NCBI GenBank assembly: GCA_963701855.1
Contig: CAVPBK010000006.1
Coordinates: 736,001-800,000 of the forward strand
Direction: 5' to 3'
Length of the DNA stretch: 64,000 nucleotides
From: Nitrospirota bacterium
GTDB taxonomy: Bacteria; Nitrospirota; Nitrospiria; Nitrospirales; Nitrospiraceae
Below are positions 48,960 to 59,082 of this stretch, one piece after another. Position numbers and translations under genes: made by a program. The first letter of the stretch is position 1; each line of letters starts with the position of its first letter. Below the pieces are notes generated by a model. The model saw only the letters and a program-made list of their open reading frames with translations. It had not been told where the DNA came from and made no database searches.

Positions 48960-49046
48960 GCCGAAGTGGCGAAACTGGCAGACGCACTAGATTCAGGGTC
49001 TAGCGCCCGCAAGGGTGTGCGGGTTCAAATCCCGCCTTCGGCACCA
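48960..49046 (+). tRNA. tRNA-Leu(CAG)
   Basis: GCCGAAG acceptor, anticodon arm CTAGA-TTCAGGG-TCTAG, long variable arm, GGTTCAAATCC, CCA end. Confidence 0.97.
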
Positions 49047-49149
49047 CCGTTCTTGCCCTCTTTGTTTTTCATGCTCTTAGCTGTCACTAAACTAGGTTTG
49101 CTAACCAATTGCTAACCAGTGATTGCAACTATCCATGGAGGACTGTCTC

Positions 49150-50400
49150 TGTTGTGCCCCGGTAAAAGGTAGACAGGTCCTCTACGCGAGGAGGGATTCA
49201 TGGACACTGCAGTGAAACCTGTCCAGACTGGTCGAGGGCGGCGGCGACGGTGGAGTGCCGAACAGCAATTGATCGTGCTGCAGGAGTGGCAGACTGGGAT
49301 CCCGCTCGAGGAGATCTGCCGGAAATACGCGATGAATGCCGCGCAGATGTATCGGTGGAAGCGCAGCCTGGACCACGGGCTCAAGGAGCCCGGTGAGCTG
49401 GGGCCGAAGAGTCAGGTGCTGGGCTTGCCGAAACGGGTTGAGGAATTCGAGCGGGCGCTGGGGCGGAAGGCCTTGGAGGGGGAGGTGTTAACAAAAGCCT
49501 TCGCGCTCAAGGGACTCAGATTACCCGAGGGAATAGAAGATGGTTGGCGCGGGTCACGGGATGTTCTAGCGTCTTGGCCTGTCGGGTCTTGGACAAGCCA
49601 CGGAGTTGGTTTGACGACCGACGGTCGTCCGGGCTGGGATGGCCGGTGAGGCGGCCGGACGTGGAAGCGGCGATGGGCCGACTCCTGGGGAGCATCCTAT
49701 GGCTACCGACGGATCCACGCGCTGCTCACGCGCCAGGGACTGACGTGCGATCTCAAGACCGTGTGGGAAACGATGCGTCGGCGTGGCGGGCTCTCGACCA
49801 GTCGCACACGCCTGATCCGGTCTGGGCGGCGACACGAGGGGCAGGTGCGTGTGGCCGAACCGAACCGGCGCGGGACCTTGGACATCACGAGCCTCCGAGC
49901 GTGGGACGGTCGGAAGGGACGCGTGGCGATCATGATCGACGGTGCGGATTGGATGGTGTTGGCCTGGCGCTTCGCCACGCGGATCACCGCCGAGGATCTG
50001 GCCGAGATGCTGCGCGAAGCGATATTCCGGCGATTTGGGGAGACACGAGTCCACGCGCAGGGGATCGAGTTTCTCAGCGACAACGGACCGGAATACACGT
50101 CGCATCGGTTCCGACCGTTCGTGCGAGCCATGGGGCTCATCCCCTGTCACACGCCCCGGCGGAGTCCGCAGTCGAATGGATGAGCCGAGGCCTTCTTCGG
50201 CAGCTTCACACGGGATGATGTGCACCAGGCGTGTCTCGACACAGTGGACGCGGTCCGGCGACAGGTGCCGGCGTGGATCGACCATGACAACCGGGAGGCG
50301 CCGCACAGCGCCTTGACCATGCAGTCGCCGGTCGAGTGCGATGCAGCGTGGTGAGTCAAAAACAAGACACGACCTGTCCACAATTAAGCGGGGCAGTACA
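49150..50400 (+). mobile_element. IS3-family element, degenerate transposase
   Basis: IRs TGTTGTGCCCCGGTAAAAGGTAGACA / TGTCCACAATTAAGCGGGGCAGTACA; orfA HTH, then orfB SDNGPEY with frameshifts and a TGA at 50181. Confidence 0.88.
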
Positions 50401-50740
50401 GTCTTCGGCAAAGGCTCCGCGCTCCACCATGAATGAGAACCAGTCCAGTGCGTGGAGGGAAAGTGTTAGAACACTGACTTGACGCTTATCACCCGTCACT
50501 ATTGGCTTGCGTCGAAATTGAGGCGTGGATGTACTGGATTCCAAAAGGCTGAGACACTTTGCACCCACTTTCACGTAGTCGCGCTCTGTCCATACTATCG
50601 GCTGCTGTTGTTGAGTTACCGGCAATTGGCGCAGAGCCTGTCCGATTTTGGCGGTGTCCTACGTCTATTGATGCATCCGAGCGCCAATGGTAGCATGTCA
50701 CGCATGTGACGAGGCTGGAATTTTGTAGCACCGCCCATAG

Positions 50741-51439
50741 TTACTCGTGGCACATGATTAAATCCGTTAAATCCACATGGTTCATTTGATCCACGAAGGC
50801 AAGATCATAAAAACCCACCAGAAACTCTACGCCTAAGAATTGACCACGAACGACGCAGTACTCACCGAGAACGCCTGCGGTAAGCGCTGCTCCAATGACT
50901 TCTATCTCGACGCCTTGTTTTACGGCTACATAATCCTGTGTCCAGGTCCTAACGAAGCCCGATTTATTCCACTCCTCATGGTTCGTCAGCGCATTCCATC
51001 GCAACCATTTTCCGTCGAGTGAACGCACATCAGCTTCTTTGTTCGTGCGAATAATTACTGTCCCTTTCTGAGCGGCTTCTACTGCGGCTTTAAACGAAAT
51101 GAATGGTATTACCTCCTCTTCTGTTTGGACACCACCGACACTGCTGATGATTGTGTCATATACTGATTCCTTCGATGCAAAGCGGCGATCGGAACTGCGT
51201 ACACCGAGCAAATGTTGCCCAACTGGAACCGAAAAGCTTTTCCTTTTACCGGGACCCAATTCTCCAATGACTTTGGCATCCAGGCGTAACGCACAAGCAA
51301 TGGGAGCATTACACTTTATTAAGAGCTTACCGGATGGCTCAGCCCAAAGCGGGGTATTATGCCAAGGCAGTGAGGATGCTGAGATCATGGCGAGCAAAAT
51401 GAGTATCTTCCGAAATCTGATTAATATACAAAGCAGCAA
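50741..51439 (-). CDS. exported hypothetical protein, possible PEGA-like domain
   Basis: Signal-peptide-like N-terminus; GKLLIKCN...LD...G...VPVGQH. Confidence 0.55.
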   Translation of the reverse strand: MLLCILIRFRKILILLAMISASSLPWHNTPLWAEPSGKLLIKCNAPIACALRLDAKVIGELGPGKRKSFSVPVGQHLLGVRSSDRRFASKESVYDTIISSVGGVQTEEEVIPFISFKAAVEAAQKGTVIIRTNKEADVRSLDGKWLRWNALTNHEEWNKSGFVRTWTQDYVAVKQGVEIEVIGAALTAGVLGEYCVVRGQFLGVEFLVGFYDLAFVDQMNHVDLTDLIMCHE

Positions 51440-52397
51440 AGAATCATCCTCGTTCAGATTAGGAGCTCTTCAGAACATCCGGAGACTTGGTTATAGACTC
51501 CACATTCCGTTACAGAAGTAAGCAGCGAAGACTTTCACCATAAACCACTTCAAAGTATGGCGACAATTTACCTGCCAGCCCAGTTATATTATCAATGATG
51601 GCATTCTTGTCTCCATCCGATAGTCTTCCGGTAAAGATTAATCCCCAGTAAATGAGGAGTGGTCTGGATCGATTTGTCGAGAAGACCTTCGGCCAACTTT
51701 CTAGCCTTCTAATCATCGATATTGCGGTCCTTCGATCTCTGGGAGTACATGCCTCCCCAACCTGGCCAGTTGGATAGGCCTGGCATCGCGTTTCGAAAAC
51801 AGGACCTCTGCCAAACAGGGGAAAATGCTACCGCAAGCAGACTTTTCCTCGAAAACGTGAGCTAGGCTAGGGAAGATTTATCAGAAGGTATCACAACAAC
51901 GCCTGGGTACCTAGGACAAATCATGGTTTCGGCTATACCCCACTCGCACATCAAGTATTGCAATCAACACGCAATCTGCCAAACTGACGCCGAGTGGTTG
52001 CCAGCAATGTGTCTTTTGTTTATTTCGCGTATAAATGCCATGACTCCACAGCATGCCCCTCCGGGGGGTGTGCCGATTAAGGCAGGTGTTAATACAGTGT
52101 TAACGGACGCGACAAAACGGGTTGAAGTGAGACGAACAGGGACAAAGTGAGACAAGTAGCCATGGCGCGAATTGCCTGGAGCGCAAAGGGGATTGCCCAC
52201 GTCATCATAGACTTGAGCAACCCCCTCTGATACAATTCCACCTTCGGCACCAAACAAATCCCCCATGCCCTTCACGCATCATCCCTGCCGCCGCTTTCCT
52301 GTGCAATGTTCCGTGACATATAACGCTGACCCATTTTTAAAGCTGATCCTCGTTTCATATTTCACCCCTCACGGTTTTTATGAGTGACGATCGGATC

Positions 52398-52979
52398 ATG
52401 GGGTTCCGGCTCCCCGTCGCCCTTGCACTGTCGATTGTCTATCTCACCGCGCCTGCGTGGGCTGACTTCAAAGCAGGCATGGACGCCTATCTCCGCAGCG
52501 ATTACGCCACGGCGTTGCGTGAGTGGCAGCCGCTGGCCGAGCAGGGACAGGCCGTCGCGCAATACAATCTCGGTCTGCTCTATGCCAATGGACAGGGTGT
52601 CACAAAGGACGATGCCAAAGCCCGGCAGTGGTACGAGAAAGCCGCCGTCCAAGGACACACGGAGGCTCAGGTTAACCTGGGAATTTTATTGATGTATGCG
52701 CGGGGTGGTCAGCAGGATTACAAGATGGCGGTGTACTATTTACGGCTGGCCGCCAATCAAGGAAACGATTTAGCGCAACGACGACTTGGCCAGATGTTTG
52801 AGCGCGGAGAGGGCGTGCCGCAGGACTATGTCCGAGCCTACATGTGGTACAGCCTTGGGTCAGCAAACGGCGCGGAGGCCGGGGCCAGGCTGCGGGATGC
52901 GCTCGCCAAACGGATGGAGCCTGAGCAAATCACCGAGGCGCAAAAGCTGGCGCGGGAGTGGAAACCGAAAGGGAAATGA
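52398..52979 (+). CDS. Sel1-repeat exported protein
   Basis: AEQGQAVAQYNLGLLYANGQGV repeats. Confidence 0.92.
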   Translation: MGFRLPVALALSIVYLTAPAWADFKAGMDAYLRSDYATALREWQPLAEQGQAVAQYNLGLLYANGQGVTKDDAKARQWYEKAAVQGHTEAQVNLGILLMYARGGQQDYKMAVYYLRLAANQGNDLAQRRLGQMFERGEGVPQDYVRAYMWYSLGSANGAEAGARLRDALAKRMEPEQITEAQKLAREWKPKGK

Positions 52980-53307
52980 GCGACGAATAGGCCACAGAGG
53001 GAACCGTATCCATCGAACAACAACGGCCTCCGTAATCCGAAAAAATATCGGATAGGCTCCTACCTCTCACTCAACATCCACGACTGCATCAGAAACGCTC
53101 TAAAAACATGCGGGCTGAACCTGCAAGAGTTCTGATCCACATACCCTCGAAATTCAAGCCTGCCAAAGTTGGCCGACCGCATCCTTAAGTCAGATGATGG
53201 AGGACAGGTTTAGTCATAGGAGCAGCGGTTTAGGAAAGCGTTTTCACCACCCTACTCCAGCCTATTCCAACTCACTCAGGCCCACTCCAGCCAAGGTTTG
53301 CGCGAAA

Positions 53308-54659
53308 TGATCTTCCCCCGATTTTATAGACACTGGTTTCTGTGTGGACCATCTCCATGTGAAGCCAACCGCGATCTCATGCGTGCGCGCCGCAAAATCG
53401 ACGCACACCATTGATCCAGGATCGACGATCATCACGGCGTCCATACGGTAGACGCCCCCGATTGATGGTATGGGTATTGATGCTCAAAGTCCATCGGGCT
53501 CCGATACCCCAAACGCGAATGGCGTCGGCTTCGATTATAGAAGCCCTCTACGTACTCAAAGATGTCGGCGCGGGCTTCTTGGCGAGTCGCATACTGCCGT
53601 CGGTGAATCAGCTCGGTCTTCAACGTAGCAAAGAAGCTCTCCACGACGGCATTGTCCCAGCAATTGCCGGGGCGGCTCATCGAGCCCCGGATTCCGCAGC
53701 TGACTAACCGGTGCTGATAGGCCACCGCGCCATACTGGCTGCCTCGATCCGAATGGTGCAGGAGCCCGGCCAACACAGGCCGTTGGTGCAGCGCCATCTC
53801 TAAAGCCGTCAGCGTCAGCGCGATCGTCTGCTGTGCATCCATGGCCCAGCCGACCACCCGCCGCGAGTACAAATCGATCACCACGGCGAGATAGAGCCAA
53901 CCCTGGCGTGTGGGCACGTAGGTGATGTCGGCGGCCCACTTCTCATTCGGCCGTGTGGCGGTGAAGGCTCGTCGCAAGACGTTCGCCCGCACCACCGCGG
54001 GAAGCGCGCTGGCCGGTGGGCGCCAGCTCCGCCGTCGAACACTGCGGAGCCCATGCAGCCGCATGAGCCGAGCCACGCGATGGCGGCCGACCCGCAACCC
54101 GTGGGCGCGCAGATCCTGATGAATCCGCGGACTCCCATAGCGGCCGCGCGACGCCTGGTAACAGGTCCGAATATGCGTGACCAGCCATTGATTCTGCTGC
54201 GCGCGTGCACCGAGCGGACGACGGCACCAGGCGTAATAGCCGCTCCGGGCCACGCTGAGGACGCGACACAAGACCTCCACGGGATACGCGGCCTTCTCCG
54301 CCTGGATGAAGCGATACCTCATCCCGACTCCTTGGCAAAGAAGGCCACGGCTTTTTTTAGGATGTCGCGCTCCATGCGGAGTTGCTCGACTTCTCGCCGC
54401 AAGACCTTGAGTTCCTCGGTCGCCAGAAAGCTGTGGGATCCTTGGGGCGCCCCCGCCGCTTGCCGCATCCATCGATTGAACGTCGGTTGGGGAATGCCCA
54501 ACTCCCGCGCCACCTGGCACTCGCTCTTCCCACTGCGTCGGCACAAGTCCACGGCTTCCTGCTTAAACTCTGGCGTGAAACTCCGTCGCTGCTGGCCCAT
54601 GAGGCACCTCCCTTCGCTGATTATGCACGGAAGGTGTCCACAAAATCAGGGAAAGACCA
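53308..54659 (-). mobile_element. IS3-family element, apparently intact
   Basis: IRs TGATCTTCCCCCGATTTTATAGACAC / TGGTCTTTCCCTGATTTTGTGGACAC; AAA target duplication; orfA 54319-54600, A7G frameshift motif, orfB WAADITY...HSDRGSQY...DNAVVESFF ending 53432. Confidence 0.93.
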
Positions 54660-54915
54660 AAAGGCGAACTTTGGCTGGAGTAGGCTGGAATAGGCTGGAG
54701 TGAGTTGGAATTGAGCACAAAATGAGCACAACGTGGTGATGAGAAGATTTTAGTTTATACTGACGATCGATAAAAACCGACATCGAAGAGGTTCTAACTC
54801 CACACTCTTTCCCGGCGGCAATCGAAAGAATTGCTGTCTATCATAGTTGAAGGTAGGATCAAGAACTCGGACAAATGAGTATTACAACATCGCATTGTTG
54901 CGTGAGGAGTACCCT

Positions 54916-55722
54916 ATGGAGACCAAGAAATCCTATGAGGCAATCCAGACTGGACTTTCAAGGCGTAAGATTCTGGTTCGTGGAAGCCAAGTCGTGGCGG
55001 GTATGGGCGTTGCCGCCTTGCTCGGCAACCTAGAAGCTTTACTCAGCAAATCGTATGGAATGGCCCCGGCAGCAACGAACCTGCTCGATTCTCTGATACC
55101 CGGTCGGACGGCTTTACTTGTCATCGACATGCAGCGTGACTTCCTTTCACCGAAAGGGTATGCCGCTCAGGCAGGAGTGGACATTACACCCTTGGTCGCC
55201 GCCATCGCTCCAATCCAAAAGTTGTTAGCCGTAGCACGCCCAGCCGGGTTGCTCATCGTGCACACCCGTGAAGGTCATGTGCCTGACCTGTCCGATTGTC
55301 CGCCCTACAAATTGGAGCGTAGCCGGAAGGCCGGAGCAGAAATTGGTTCAAAAGGTCCGCTCGGTCGTCTGTTGGTTCGGGGTGAAGTGGGACACGATTT
55401 CATCGATACCTTACGTCCGCTTGAGAAGGAAATCGTCATCGACAAGCCGGGCTATAGCGCATTCCCTCACACCACCCTGCAACAGGTCCTTACTAAAAGC
55501 GGGATTGAAACGTTGATCCTGACTGGCGTCACCACGGAAGTGTGTGTGAGTTCGACACTACGGAGTGCCGTTGATCTTGGATACCGTTGCATCACGGTGA
55601 GTGATGCCTCTGCGTCTGGAGATCCGAGCTTGCACAAAGCAGCACTGGCAATGATCGGTGTGGAGGGGGGCATCTTTGGAGAAGTAGCCACCACTTCTCA
55701 GGTCGTCAAACGACTTGCATGA
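54916..55722 (+). CDS. isochorismatase-family cysteine hydrolase, BiuH/GuuH-like, with Tat-type signal
   Basis: IDMQRDF, HTREGH.PDL, GPLGRLLVRGE, IDKPGYSAF, GVTTEVCV, VEGGIFG; N-terminal SRRKIL plus hydrophobic stretch; GAGGAG RBS. Confidence 0.85.
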   Translation: METKKSYEAIQTGLSRRKILVRGSQVVAGMGVAALLGNLEALLSKSYGMAPAATNLLDSLIPGRTALLVIDMQRDFLSPKGYAAQAGVDITPLVAAIAPIQKLLAVARPAGLLIVHTREGHVPDLSDCPPYKLERSRKAGAEIGSKGPLGRLLVRGEVGHDFIDTLRPLEKEIVIDKPGYSAFPHTTLQQVLTKSGIETLILTGVTTEVCVSSTLRSAVDLGYRCITVSDASASGDPSLHKAALAMIGVEGGIFGEVATTSQVVKRLA

Positions 55723-55881
55723 TGTTGCGAGCCTACGGAAGTATAGAAGCGATCCAAAAAGGCTCTTGAGTTCAAAAGGCTATCCCTTTGTTTTACTTCA
55801 GGGCCGAGACCGCATCTAAACAGGGGCAGAAACAACTGCTATTGATCAGTGGGTTTCCTGCATCCGTCTAACTAAGCTACC

Positions 55882-55908
55882 TGTCCCAATTTTAAGTGGG
55901 GCACGACA
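55882..55908. mobile_element. solo IS3-type terminal repeat
   Basis: TGTCCCAATTTTAAGTGGGGCACGACA resembles the right IR at 50375-50400. Confidence 0.55.
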
Positions 55909-56121
55909 TTGAAATACTCACTGGGTGTTCCTGTTTTCTGCTTAATTTGTATTCCTTTTTGATTCTTTGTAGTGAGGTAGGCTTCTATTACATTCCATGA
56001 ATTCGCGGCACGGGTGAAGGTGAGGCACTCGACTTCGCATCAGTTACGAGAGCTGCTCAACCGGATGGGCAGGATCATTGAGGGGCAACGGATCGCCTCG
56101 AAAAGCGACTCGGTAGGAGTT

Positions 56122-57001
56122 CTAACAATACTTCTTTAAATCCTTGTCTCCACAGATGTAGTCATTAGTAAAGACAAGCCAATCCTTTCGAAAGTCCCCT
56201 CCGATGCTATGCGCAAGCTCTAACGCGTGCAAAAAATACTTCCTCGCATTTTGCATATCGCCTTGTTCCCAATACGTCATCCCCATATCGTCGTACATTA
56301 TGGCTTCGAGTTGGCTAAGGCCAATAGGGCTCACTTCCTCTTTTTTGGACCGGGCGATGAATTGTTCCATTTCCTCATAGGAGCCGCCCCATCGAGGTTT
56401 AAGAGAGGCCATATACCGACCGCGAGCCAGCGTATTAATCGGAAGCATCTTATTGGCAGCGATAACTAACCCCCCTTGCAAGCTCCTTGTCTCCTCTCGA
56501 TTTACTTATTTCGAGCAACTGGAACACGCTTAAAAAAGGCTTTTCCGTTAGGTCTAAAGAGTTGCTTAACTCAGTGAACGCGATCTCATTGAGTTGTTGC
56601 ATCCTTTGTATTTTATCTTGCGGTGTTTGGCTGATGTACTTGCCCCCTCTGGCATCTGCGGCTTTTCTTTTGAAATGGACACCTCGTATTAAGTGTGCGG
56701 CATATGATCGTGGGATTGCTTTTTTCCACTCCTCAACTTTTGCAAAGGTTTCTTCGTCTAAATCATAAAACTGTCTATAGATGTTTCTGAGTTGGATTTC
56801 CGACAGCGTTCCATTTTCAAATCTCTCTTGAACCTGACGTGTGGCGGATTCGAGTGTTTCAAACTCTTGCGCCTTTAGCAAAGGAAGTAACCCCGTTTCA
56901 TAGTACTCATTAGAAATGCTGGTGCGCGTCGGCGTACAACCCAAGATAGAGGACAACGCGAAGATACTCAGGAGAACGAGTAGATTTATTTTCAATCTCA
57001 T
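56122..57001 (-). CDS. DUF4034-domain/TPR lipoprotein (apparent +1 frameshift in G-run near 56470)
   Basis: Lipobox ILGC; W....P.SYAAHL.RG, ARG..Y; LKPRWGGSYEEM; TPR-like end. Confidence 0.7.
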
Positions 57002-57206
57002 AATAACTTTGCCGCACAATTAGAAACAAGAGAGGATGTCGAATGACATACAAAAGCCTAGCAGACATCGAGAATTTGGCAATCATGCTGCTATAGCATC
57101 TTGGTTTCCCGTTTAAACTGCTCTTGGACAATTCAGGTTCCTCCGGCGAAGACACCAGTTACTTTGCGCTTTTGAGCTAGGGCTATTTCCCGCGACGCTT
57201 CTTGCG

Positions 57207-57360
57207 GCGACTTTTGCCGCGCAGGTAATCAGAATCATCGACGGCGACGCGATGGAAGTCCTGCACAATCAACGCCCTGAACGCATCCGCCTCAGCAGCA
57301 TCGATTGCCCAGAGAAAGGGCCAGGCATACGGCAAGCGAGCCAAGCACACCGCCTCGGCC
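57207..57360 (+). pseudogene. thermonuclease (SNase) fragment
   Basis: Translates VIRIIDGDAMEVL...ERIRLSSIDCPEKG/QAYGKRAK. Confidence 0.7.
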
Positions 57361-57944
57361 ACGGCAAACGCCCACCGCGTCCGACGTGAAATCGCTTGGA
57401 CACGTAAGGTTCCTAATACATTTGTGCTCAAGCCTACCACAAGGCCTGAAACACTCTGGAGGTAATCGTCTTGTTCCGCCTATGACTTAGGAATGATGAC
57501 AGTGGAACTTGACGGCACTGGTTGAGAGAGGTGAAGAGGATTGAAGGTCATATTCATTTGTTTTTGGAACAGGCCGAAGGATACGTCAATGCCTAAGAAA
57601 AATCGACTTCCCCACTCTCGACATTGGGAGAGGTTTTTGGACACTATGCGTGGAACGACTGAGCAGGGGGAAAGAGGCTGAAGGTCGCGTTGAAAGTTCC
57701 GTTCTTGTACAAACTGGTGAACCCAATCAAAGCTCGAATGAGATACAAGCGGCGGTCGTAAAACGGTCATATACATATAGCAGAGCTACTTTCCGCTCAT
57801 TCCTCCCCACTCAATCTCACTCTTTATCAAATCGCAAGTCGTTGACTTGTTTCCGTAAACTTTGTGAAGGTCGCGTCAACCATTGTGGGGGCTGAATTGG
57901 CATCAAATCCCGCCTTCGGCACTATTCCTCCCTCTTTTGTTCCC

Positions 57945-58069
57945 TAGCCCACATTACTCATGAACGCTTCTGTTGCAATCTCCGATCCGCTGCTGCGACG
58001 AGGCCTCGGCCAGCGGGCTCGCGACTCAGTTCAGCGATTTCGCGACGAACCGTCATGACTAGTGCGGGC
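57945..58069. mobile_element. MITE (family C, diverged)
   Basis: GCCCACATTACTCATGAA ... TCATGACTAGTGCGGGC. Confidence 0.6.
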
Positions 58070-58163
58070 AGAACTCTTCAAGAGTAGAATCCTTACCTGG
58101 TAAAGGCGTGGGCACGGACAAGAGGATTGGTCTTTTCGGCTCCTACCGGAGACCAGGGATTTC

Positions 58164-59082
58164 ATGAGAATCGTGGTCAGCGGCGGAACGGGGTTCATCG
58201 GTCGGCCCTTATGTGCCTCGCTCTGTCAAGATGGGCATCAGATTACCCTCCTCACGAGAAGGATAGGAAAGCGCAACGGTTCTATGGCTTGACCGTCACG
58301 GCTGTCGAGTGGAATGGCCGGGAGGCGGGAGCCTGGGAGCATTGTCTCGAAGGTGCGGATGCTGTCATCAATCTCGCCGGTGCGCCGATTGCCGATGGGC
58401 GCTGGACCGATGCCCGCAAGCAACTCCTCACCGAAAGCCGCGTCCTCACTACTCGTCTACTGGTAGCAGCCTCTGTCCCGCAGCCCCTCGAAACCGCGCA
58501 CGCTGATCAACGCTTCCGGTATCGGCTACTATGGGACCAGCGACGATCGTGTGCTGGATGAGGGCGCCGTGCGCGGCCAAGGCTTTCTGGCCGATCTCTG
58601 TCTCGCGTGGGAGGCGGAGGCGCTTCGGGCCGCGGAGTTCGGTGTGCGAGTCGTCATGTTGCGGACTGGAATGGTGCTCGAACAAGACGGTGGTGCCTTG
58701 CCGAAGATGCTGTTGCCGTTCCAGCTCTTCGCAGGCGGCCCGATCATGCCGGGAACCCAGTGGGTGTCGTGGATCCACCGGCGTGACCACATCGGATCTG
58801 ATCCAGTGGCTGCTCGCAACGCCAAGCGTCTCCGGCCCCGTCAATGCGGTGGCTCCCGAACCTGTGACGATGAACCAGTTCTGCGACGCGCTCGGGCGAG
58901 TCCTCCACCGGCCATCCTGGATTCCCGTGCCGGGCTTCGCGCTGTACGTGGCACTGGGTGAACTGGGGACGCTCATGACCACGGGCCAACGGATCAATCC
59001 GGCAAAGGCGCTCGCCGGGGGATACGCCTTTCACTATCCGACGCTGGAACCGGCCTTGCGGGCGATCGTGACGAAGAGATAA
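58164..59082 (+). CDS. TIGR01777/YfcH NAD-dependent epimerase family (three apparent frameshifts)
   Basis: MRIVVSGGTGFIG, AVINLAG, NASGIGYYG, FLADLCLAWE, SWIH, GPVNAVAP in successive frames. Confidence 0.85.

Follow-up and report, generated by a model that had tools for sequence, protein, structure and literature searches.

The DNA examined here (the window) is a stretch of 64,000 nucleotides of a Nitrospirota bacterium (family Nitrospiraceae; GenBank assembly GCA_963701855.1, contig CAVPBK010000006.1, positions 736,001 to 800,000), and the host assembly is a 97% complete, complete ammonia-oxidising (comammox)-type Nitrospira. The window carries, on a genomic island bounded by a tRNA-Leu gene, a gene for an isochorismatase-like cysteine hydrolase that is related to the biuret and triuret hydrolases BiuH and TrtA and to the guanylurea hydrolase GuuH. 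This report is focused on the structure, export leader, relatives, and genomic setting of this hydrolase and on the substrate that it may act upon.

The hydrolase gene and its twin-arginine leader

The gene is an intact open reading frame (ORF) of 268 codons on the plus strand, from the ATG at 54916 to the TGA at 55720-55722. Pfam recognises a single Isochorismatase domain in its product (PF00857, residues 65-260; E 1.5e-41, 142.8 bits against a cut-off of 27). The nearest solved structure is BiuH of Rhizobium leguminosarum (6azo, E 3.1e-58 with HMMER), followed by Rhodococcus BiuH (6xjm, 1.3e-57) and TrtA (6xix, 2e-54), and RutB is a distant relative (1e-26). An AlphaFold2 model built from 38 sequences has a predicted template modelling score of 0.78 and a predicted local distance difference test (pLDDT) value of at least 90 at 205 residues, and it superimposes on BiuH 6azn with a root-mean-square deviation of 0.9 Å over 210 columns (TM 0.91, 47% identity); residues 1-51 are unstructured, with pLDDT below 50. 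Residue numbers of the window protein minus 35 give BiuH numbers, and D71, K177, and C210 align with the BiuH triad D36, K142, and C175, and F76 with F41. The Asp-Lys-Cys triad is invariant in the 86 of 86 aligned rows described below, and the initial annotation, which had recognised an isochorismatase with biuret-hydrolase blocks and this triad, was correct. The two altered blocks that it had pointed out are likewise visible in the HMMER alignment to 6azo, where 'mqggvfg' is matched by 'veggifg' and 'dkpgkg' by 'dkpgys'; the changes correspond to Glu250 and Tyr180 (Table 1). Compared with 12 orthologues, the mature domain shows 1043 synonymous and 342 non-synonymous codon differences (354, 157, and 1176 changes at codon positions 1, 2, and 3), and by this pattern it is under strong purifying selection.

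The folded domain is preceded by a leader in which SRRKIL (residues 15-20) is followed by VVAGMGVAALLG, an arrangement that resembles the S/T-R-R-x-F-L-K motif and the moderately hydrophobic h-region of the twin-arginine translocation (Tat) pathway. The leader had been proposed from the sequence of this one gene, and comparison with its homologues shows it to be conserved. Among 121 homologues taken, the domain anchor was located in 120 (P0120 was omitted), and 117 of these 120 have the twin arginine in the leader, with the consensus [PS]-[ST]-R-R-[EDK]-[ILV]-L; of the three others, one has R-P, and two come from gene calls that are shorter and start past the motif. The median of the best 12-residue hydropathy in the homologue leaders is 2.18. 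A Tat-like leader was defined as RR-x-hydrophobic-hydrophobic followed by a 12-residue stretch with a mean hydropathy of at least 1.5, and this test was positive in 6 of 80 loci, all from Nitrospirota, and in none of the 73 non-Nitrospirota loci. The seventh Nitrospirota locus (L009) has SRRELL and was not flagged, and the alignment suggests a weaker hydrophobic stretch there; a twin-arginine leader is thus found in seven of seven Nitrospirota loci. GuuH of Pseudomonas mendocina MET (GuuH-MET, see below) and the Rhizobium BiuH and TrtA-like proteins have no such leader.

It might be supposed that translation truly starts at Met49 (or Met30), with an untranslated leader and a cytoplasmic enzyme like its relatives. 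Met49 is conserved in one subgroup, at the position where the cytoplasmic homologues begin, and the leader is fast-evolving, with 150 synonymous and 293 non-synonymous codon differences from the 12 orthologues. Against this, all 14 orthologous loci (12 distinct contigs) keep an open frame with an ATG 5′ of the twin arginine, and GAGGAG precedes the ATG at 54916; the start codon is placed 5′ of the motif, in agreement with the initial annotation. The twin arginine and the hydrophobic stretch are kept in the 117 homologues despite the turnover of sequence around them, the leader indels visible in the orthologue alignment are all of whole codons, and the subgroup of L008, L010, and L011 has Ala, not Met, at the aligned position. 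Changes at third positions also dominate in the leader (180, 160, and 263 at positions 1, 2, and 3), and, judged by codons, the leader varies as a signal peptide does that is translated and maintained for its physical properties. A start at Met49 is accordingly considered very improbable.

The comparison supports a conserved, Nitrospirota-specific twin-arginine leader downstream of a conserved start codon, and export of the hydrolase is likely. Two TatC genes are present in the genome (205 and 194 bits; TatA and TatB were outside the search). Because Gly48 is conserved in both leader subtypes (S-Y-G|M and A-W-G|A) and fits the -3/-1 rule, signal cleavage is proposed to occur after S-Y-G48. Some features speak against export: the leader has no canonical A-x-A site, the Tat profile models of Pfam and NCBIfam (PF10518 and TIGR01409, E<=10) did not match the window leader, and a catalytic thiol would be unusual in the oxidising periplasm. 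The missing model match would also suit a start at Met49. The leader of one orthologue gave sub-threshold matches only, to Rieske (E 0.0059) and formate-dehydrogenase Tat models.

The Glu/Tyr subclass and its relation to GuuH, BiuH, and TrtA

A tblastn search of 72,556 plasmids returned pKHPS1, pKHPS2, and pMET-2 as the top matches, each with 60.6% identity over residues 61-268. The three plasmids are all from wastewater Pseudomonas, and the matches in Pseudomonas sp. KHPS1 and P. hydrolytica KHPS2 are identical. The gene on pMET-2 (CP098607 20653-21288, protein UZZ13643.1) follows a nucleoside deaminase gene, and IS66 transposase genes lie approximately 3 kb downstream, within the stretch shown; because this setting fits the published description, the gene is taken as BB_00025 of P. 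mendocina MET, and its product is referred to here as GuuH-MET. BB_00025 was reported as a new guanylurea hydrolase with 11 µmol/min/mg on guanylurea (apparent kcat 4.4 s-1) and 0.4 nmol/min/mg on biuret (PMC9800807), and it has been reused as a coupling enzyme for guanylurea (PMC10927577). Its translation contains GEGHIFG and DKPGYG, and it thus has Glu and Tyr at the same two sites as the window protein.

Both sites have been probed in BiuH, in which alanine replacement of D36, K142, or K145 abolished activity and replacement of F41 or Q215 reduced it by >90%; Q215 of BiuH, equivalent to Q202 of TrtA, was proposed to determine the choice between biuret and triuret (PMC7948467). We aligned 86 rows, comprising 80 genome loci, the window protein, GuuH-MET, a Nitrosospira plasmid homologue, and three Rhizobium-plasmid hydrolases that were assigned through PDB and NCBIfam as BiuH, a TrtA-like protein, and a third hydrolase. 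Glu occupies the Q215 site in 57 of the 86 rows and is always accompanied by Tyr (50 rows) or Phe (7 rows) at the K145 site, Gln and Lys occur together in 28, and the remaining row is the distant third Rhizobium hydrolase. The Glu/Tyr pair is fixed in eight of eight Nitrospirota rows, and this fixation, together with the twin arginine in 117 of 120 homologues, argues that the observation is not due to chance. Nine columns discriminate the two classes at a conservation of at least 85%, and the window protein agrees with GuuH-MET at eight of them.

Phylogenetic analysis divides the family along the same line. A quick tree that includes all 86 rows places those with Lys/Gln on one side of a branch with a Shimodaira–Hasegawa-like approximate likelihood ratio test (SH-aLRT) value of 96. 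A careful tree of 68 rows (207 columns including both marker columns; bootstrap not fully settled) separates the Glu class from the Lys/Gln class, which includes BiuH and TrtA, with support of 100/99. The window protein stands with GuuH-MET on the Glu side, and the expected place of the protein in the BiuH/GuuH clade is thereby narrowed to the GuuH-MET side of this split. The careful tree omitted 18 rows, namely the long-branch third hydrolase and 17 others (L006, L009, L010, L023, L028, L037, L040, L045, L053, L064, L067, L075, L076, L078, L080, L082, and L084). Both trees are read as unrooted, since the third Rhizobium hydrolase, when used for rooting, sits on a branch of length 10 and leaves the root unreliable. 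The Nitrospirota rows group as one clade (100/97), to which a Burkholderiales sequence is joined (99/88). The alignment and trees support the assignment of the window protein, as a sequence, to the same subclass as the experimentally proven guanylurea hydrolase GuuH-MET. The initial annotation had stated that a Gln-to-Glu change separates guanylurea hydrolase from BiuH; this holds for GuuH-MET, the one of the two characterised guanylurea hydrolases that was compared.

GuuH-MET and the window protein share the D/K/C triad, Glu and Tyr at both sites, and insertion sequences close by, whereas GuuH-MET starts one residue before the domain without any leader, has GEGH in place of VEGG, and is encoded in an operon with a LysR regulator, an NMT1-type binding protein, a nucleoside deaminase, and ABC transporter genes. 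GuuH of P. mendocina GU belongs to the same protein superfamily and is proposed to catalyse the same reaction, and its identity to GuuH-MET is 44.8% (PMC9800807). BiuH of R. leguminosarum bv. viciae 3841 (6AZN, 6AZO, and 6AZQ) and Rhodococcus sp. Mel (6XJM) has the same fold, triad, and Phe41 equivalent, but differs from the window protein in the absence of a leader and in its two marker residues. TrtA of Herbaspirillum sp. BH-1 (6XIX and 6XJE) has the same fold and 45-46% identity, and the window protein is like TrtA in having Glu at the position of BiuH Asp173 and Ile at that of Val218. TrtA differs in that it keeps Lys132 and Gln202 and lacks an export leader, and trtA is clustered with biuH; in its Q202E mutant, activity on biuret was still far below that on triuret (PMC7948467).

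The protein could also be read as an exported biuret or triuret hydrolase supplying a nitrifier with nitrogen derived from urea: BiuH and TrtA are its closest relatives of known structure, and some sources name homologues 'biuret amidohydrolase'. Leaderless BiuH/TrtA-type genes with 45-47% identity to the window protein do occur in 13 of 85 species genomes of the genus (11 as a pair of matches and two as single matches), and such pairs, described in comammox and other Nitrospira as lying together with atzF and transporter genes, have been proposed as an organic-nitrogen route into nitrification (PMC12625717). They share genus and superfamily with the lineage described here, which is by contrast solitary and leader-bearing. 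The window protein scores 244.3 bits with the NCBIfam BiuH equivalog NF050097, far from the cut-off of 370, as do GuuH-MET (271.4 bits) and the TrtA-like protein (239.9 bits), whereas Rhizobium BiuH reaches 424.5 bits. Moreover, it has Tyr and Glu in place of Lys145 and Gln215, which are needed for BiuH activity (PMC7948467), it lies across the 100/99 split from BiuH and TrtA, its genome has no allophanate hydrolase above the cut-off, and GuuH-MET, with the same residue pair, has an activity of about 0.4 nmol/min/mg on biuret (PMC9800807). We consider a biuret or triuret hydrolase a very unlikely identity for this enzyme.

Two observations were made among the relatives. Plasmid pNRS527-2 of the ammonia-oxidising isolate Nitrosospira sp. 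NRS527, which is small and mobilisable-looking, carries a leaderless Glu-class hydrolase with 62% identity to the window protein (L003 7900-8592), where its neighbours are a LysR regulator and part of a further isochorismatase gene. In five Thiobacillus/Sulfurisoma loci (L019, L020, L023, L025, and L038), the open frame runs 270-300 codons upstream of the hydrolase domain; the ORFs of L023 and L038 encode 488-489 amino acids, in which Pfam at E<=1e-10 detects no domain other than Isochorismatase, and they are either a fusion or a read-through of naive ORF extension.

Genomic island and spread within Nitrospira

The hydrolase gene lies on a tRNA-bounded island because the 3′ end of tRNA-Leu(CAG) recurs exactly at 57903-57922 (Table 1). 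The initial annotation had placed the gene on a tRNA island, and the exact 20-nt repeats at 49025-49044 and 57903-57922 and the synteny break at the tRNA agree with it. In five related genomes, homology to the left flank (84-97% identity) stops at 49046-49061 and right-flank homology resumes at approximately 58162-58182. The inserts found at the tRNA site on single contigs measure approximately 4.3 kb in one relative (G039) and approximately 16.4 kb in another (G074), which identifies the site as a variable integration spot; in G039 the tRNA is directly joined to DNA matching 52234-52980. The GC content of the island falls to 0.46-0.53, as opposed to 0.56-0.62 in the flanks, and low-GC ORFs are also present between the IS3 remnant and the later cargo. 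A Pfam scan of the ORFs in 49100-57900 for an island integrase found a recognised recombinase domain in IS3-type transposases only.

Table 1. Positions of the hydrolase gene, its functional residues, and the features of the surrounding island (window coordinates unless a contig is named).
Feature	Position	Strand	Basis
tRNA-Leu(CAG), left island border	48960..49046	+	ARAGORN; homology of five relatives ends at 49046-49061 (blastn)
Direct repeat copy 1, tRNA 3′ end, TCAAATCCCGCCTTCGGCAC	49025..49044	.	Repeat family D1
IS3-type remnant (HTH_Tnp_1 ORF 49200-49649, rve ORF 49761-50183)	49200..50183	+	Pfam
80% copy of the tRNA-end repeat, possible joint of two tandem insertions	52231..52250	.	Repeat search
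Sel1-repeat protein with signal-like N-terminus, island cargo	52380..52979	+	Pfam PF08238, E 5.9e-30
IS3-family insertion sequence, complete (orfA 54319-54600, orfB 53432-54544)	53247..54711	-	Pfam rve/HTH_21/HTH_Tnp_1
Shine-Dalgarno-like GAGGAG	54904..54909	+	6 bases 5′ of ATG, read in sequence
Isochorismatase-like cysteine hydrolase gene, Glu/Tyr subclass, 268 aa (P0001)	54916..55722	+	ORF and homology
Leader, residues 1-48: variable n-region, RR motif, Gly/Ala-rich h-region, conserved Gly48	54916..55059	+	
Twin-arginine motif S15-R16-R17-K18-I19-L20	54958..54975	+	Sequence; homologue conservation
Asp71, catalytic triad (BiuH D36)	55126..55128	+	Alignment
Lys177, catalytic triad (BiuH K142)	55444..55446	+	Alignment
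Tyr180, replacing substrate-binding Lys145 of BiuH	55453..55455	+	Tyr/Phe in 57/57 Glu-class rows
Cys210, catalytic nucleophile (BiuH C175)	55543..55545	+	Alignment
Glu250, replacing BiuH Gln215 / TrtA Gln202, proposed substrate-choice residue	55663..55665	+	Alignment
Two small low-GC genes (TPR; DUF4034 with lipoprotein-like N-terminus), island cargo	56122..57019	-	Pfam; GC 0.46-0.47
Direct repeat copy 3, exact 20-nt duplicate of tRNA 3′ end, right border	57903..57922	.	Repeat search
Guanidine-I riboswitch/APC-type permease/guanidinase locus of the host genome, permease convergent with guanidinase	G000:C11:25912-29343 (L097 5913-9343)		

The complete IS3-family element, with inverted repeats at 53247-53301 and 54664-54711, stops approximately 200 nt short of the hydrolase gene on the 5′ side, and transcription of the gene could be affected by it. 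At the island's right end, short sequences of approximately 75-155 nt (57235-57359, 57548-57702, and 57944-58069) are present in dozens of copies with 70-91% identity in each of the five related Nitrospira genomes and resemble a dispersed family of short repeats of the miniature inverted-repeat transposable element (MITE) or repetitive extragenic palindromic (REP) kind. Farther right, at 58127-59082, two ORFs that overlap in different frames (58127-58561 and 58531-59082) jointly resemble one epimerase-family gene with a DUF1731 C-terminus; this gene may contain a frameshift, or the island insertion may have truncated it at the 5′ end.

An Rfam scan of 54500-56100 (E<=5) gave two chance-level matches and no riboswitch, and a consensus scan of 54600-56100 found neither promoter nor terminator. 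Contigs of four metatranscriptome runs cover the locus only in short fragments (54726-54919, 55191-55454, and 55546-55696; depth 2-9) that may stem from DNA carry-over. Pieces at 54660-54730 belong to the end repeat of the insertion sequence, and the RNA evidence offers no basis for expression, a transcript start, or habitat. This fragmentary evidence, the missing consensus signals, the position of the gene between IS3 copies, and the lack of any Pfam-recognised recombinase on the island other than insertion-sequence transposases would all be compatible with a non-functional passenger on a decaying island. The intact ORF and the excess of synonymous changes in the mature domain oppose such a view, as does the abundance of the protein, which has 110 member sequences in its near-identical cluster and more than 100 further clusters at 74-90% identity, and we give a passenger hardly any credence. 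The gene is a real, conserved, and mobile one for a leader-bearing Glu-class hydrolase.

Within the genus, an orthologue with at least 78% identity is present in 10 of the 85 species genomes, two of them as partial matches. The closest orthologue, with 92% protein identity, is found in G039 on a contig other than that of the tRNA site, and DNA homology between it and the window is confined to 54899 to 55844. The neighbouring genes differ among the Nitrospira loci and none is conserved: Usp/CBS genes are found in L007 and L009, NDH-2 in L010 and L011, cytochrome c and PilZ genes in L098, seryl-tRNA synthetase with defence-type genes in L008, and an SRPBCC gene in L006, L099, and L101. Because the neighbours differ and the homology with G039 spans only the gene and its margins, the gene moves as a single-gene module. 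Its occurrence in the genus is patchy. This mode of transfer and the nesting of the Nitrospirota clade among Betaproteobacteria support the horizontal acquisition that the initial annotation had inferred.

Candidate substrate and metabolic setting

The host genome contains amoA (309 bits) and an arginase-family guanidinase that scores 824 bits against 9FEK, the guanidinase of N. inopinata, and 567 bits against the Synechocystis enzyme. An AA_permease_2 (APC-type) gene next to that of the guanidinase is preceded by a guanidine-I riboswitch, which scores 89.7 bits against a gathering score of 63, and growth of comammox on guanidine has been shown (PMC11410670). Of the guanidinase, urease, and amo genes that the initial annotation had suggested seeking, guanidinase and amoA were found. 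The urease-less result stands beside a guanidinase whose product is urea. The hydrolase is the sole PF00857 gene of the genome, which also has no creatininase-family gene, and the Nitrospira enzyme thus dispenses with the partners that accompany its relatives in Proteobacteria.

Those relatives are numerous. The Glu class is spread over many proteobacterial genera, and a recurring cluster of Beta- and Gammaproteobacteria comprises one or two short-chain dehydrogenase/reductase (SDR) genes, a fatty-acid-desaturase-like gene, an EamA transporter, a creatininase-family amidohydrolase, a leaderless hydrolase, and a metallo-beta-lactamase (MBL)-fold protein, often with an NMT1-type ABC transporter or a PAS-GGDEF-EAL protein. 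The Burkholderiales sequence joined to the Nitrospirota clade and most of the other Glu-class genes examined fit this arrangement; the creatininase is found in L014, L017, L036, L042, and L043, and the MBL-fold protein in L017, L027, L034, L042, L043, and L066. L013 and L014, which count among the closest relatives of the Nitrospira clade outside Nitrospirota, are of the cluster type, and L014 has an allophanate hydrolase nearby. A literature search returned no description of this creatininase/MBL/desaturase cluster. The Nitrospira gene has lost all operon partners, which fits the scavenging of a ready-made external compound, without naming that compound.

On the mechanism that we propose, the hydrolase would fold in the cytoplasm and be exported by Tat, and the leader would be cut near Gly48 or kept as a membrane anchor. 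Once in the periplasm, the nucleophile Cys210, with Asp71 and Lys177 activating it, would attack the terminal carbamoyl carbon of a small ureide; by the chemistry of the family, ammonia would leave, the thioester would be hydrolysed, and the carbamate would lose CO2 to yield the remaining amine. Guanylurea would thus be converted to ammonia, CO2, and guanidine. Because Glu250 and Tyr180 stand where the biuret and triuret hydrolases have Gln and Lys, the pocket appears suited to a cationic partner group, and the two residues may accept the guanidinium group. Ammonia would appear on the periplasmic side and, in comammox, reach ammonia monooxygenase, and guanidine would induce the riboswitch-controlled APC-type permease, be taken up, and be split by guanidinase.

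Guanylurea is the leading candidate substrate of the window protein, as yet an unproven one that is suggested by the subclass to which the protein belongs. The full reading, an exported cysteine amidohydrolase of the BiuH/TrtA/GuuH branch to which a Tat leader was added in Nitrospira and whose most likely substrate is guanylurea, is in our judgement about evenly poised between right and wrong. A stronger version, in which Nitrospira, comammox as well as strict nitrite-oxidising members, evolved a periplasmic hydrolase dedicated to guanylurea by placing a Tat leader on a cytoplasmic proteobacterial enzyme and spreading it as a single-gene module, is offered tentatively and seems to us somewhat improbable.

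Several observations weigh against guanylurea. An identity of 60.6% to GuuH-MET is insufficient to fix the substrate, and the discoverers of that enzyme warned that the identity between guanylurea hydrolases and family members with other annotations can reach 65% (PMC9800807). GuuH-MET is located elsewhere on the Glu side of the tree, nearest to a gammaproteobacterial metagenome-assembled genome with 71% identity, and is not nearest the Nitrospira branch. The gene is not tightly linked with guanidinase or amoA in the genus: the 10 carriers include six with amoA and seven with a guanidinase of at least 90% identity, and the 75 non-carriers include 38 with each. No urease alpha subunit was found with PF00449 and TIGR01792 over the 97%-complete assembly, and the best genome match to the allophanate hydrolase model TIGR02713 reaches 230.6 bits against a cut-off of 511; complete use of guanidine nitrogen is therefore hypothetical. 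Furthermore, the conserved creatininase/MBL operon suggests that the class probably has a natural substrate that is delivered by a ring-opening partner and is other than guanylurea, and GuuH-MET may be a recruit from this class.

These points converge on the most serious alternative, in which the exported Glu-class hydrolase has as its physiological substrate another small cationic ureide or amide, such as a ring-opened product of the kind made by the proteobacterial creatininase-family partner or an oxidised-purine fragment, and guanylurea is at most a side activity. The breadth of the class and its embedding in the creatininase/MBL/SDR/desaturase-like/transporter operon favour this alternative, and so do the loose co-occurrence with guanidinase, the fact that man-made compounds are the main known source of guanylurea (PMC11410670), and the description of GuuH-MET as a likely recent acquisition with insertion elements on its flanks (PMC9800807). 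Conversely, guanylurea is the sole substrate shown for any member of the class (PMC9800807), the Glu/Tyr pocket would fit a guanidinium group, and in a genome with neither a creatininase partner nor a second family member the substrate must arrive ready-made from outside. Another physiological substrate is a real possibility to which we attach a sizeable chance, short of even. The substrate of the hydrolases of the creatininase/MBL operon may define that of the whole class.

Our literature search, which did not extend to supplements, found neither an exported member of the BiuH/TrtA/GuuH group nor a candidate guanylurea hydrolase of Nitrospira, and a role of comammox in metformin removal is a matter of speculation only in the study of comammox growth on guanidine (PMC11410670). 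The phylogeny in figure S10 of PMC12625717 may include this lineage. As far as the searches show, the window protein would be the first exported member of the group. The biological interest of such an enzyme lies in its candidate substrate, given that guanylurea is a persistent product of metformin and of dicyandiamide, a fertiliser additive and nitrification inhibitor. If guanylurea is indeed the substrate, a periplasmic hydrolase of Nitrospira would supply the missing first step before guanidine use, would make nitrifiers direct consumers of guanylurea, and would tie a pharmaceutical and agrochemical residue directly to nitrification. Even with another substrate, a leader-bearing, mobile, single-gene hydrolase for nitrogen scavenging would be a useful marker for the use of organic nitrogen in nitrifiers.

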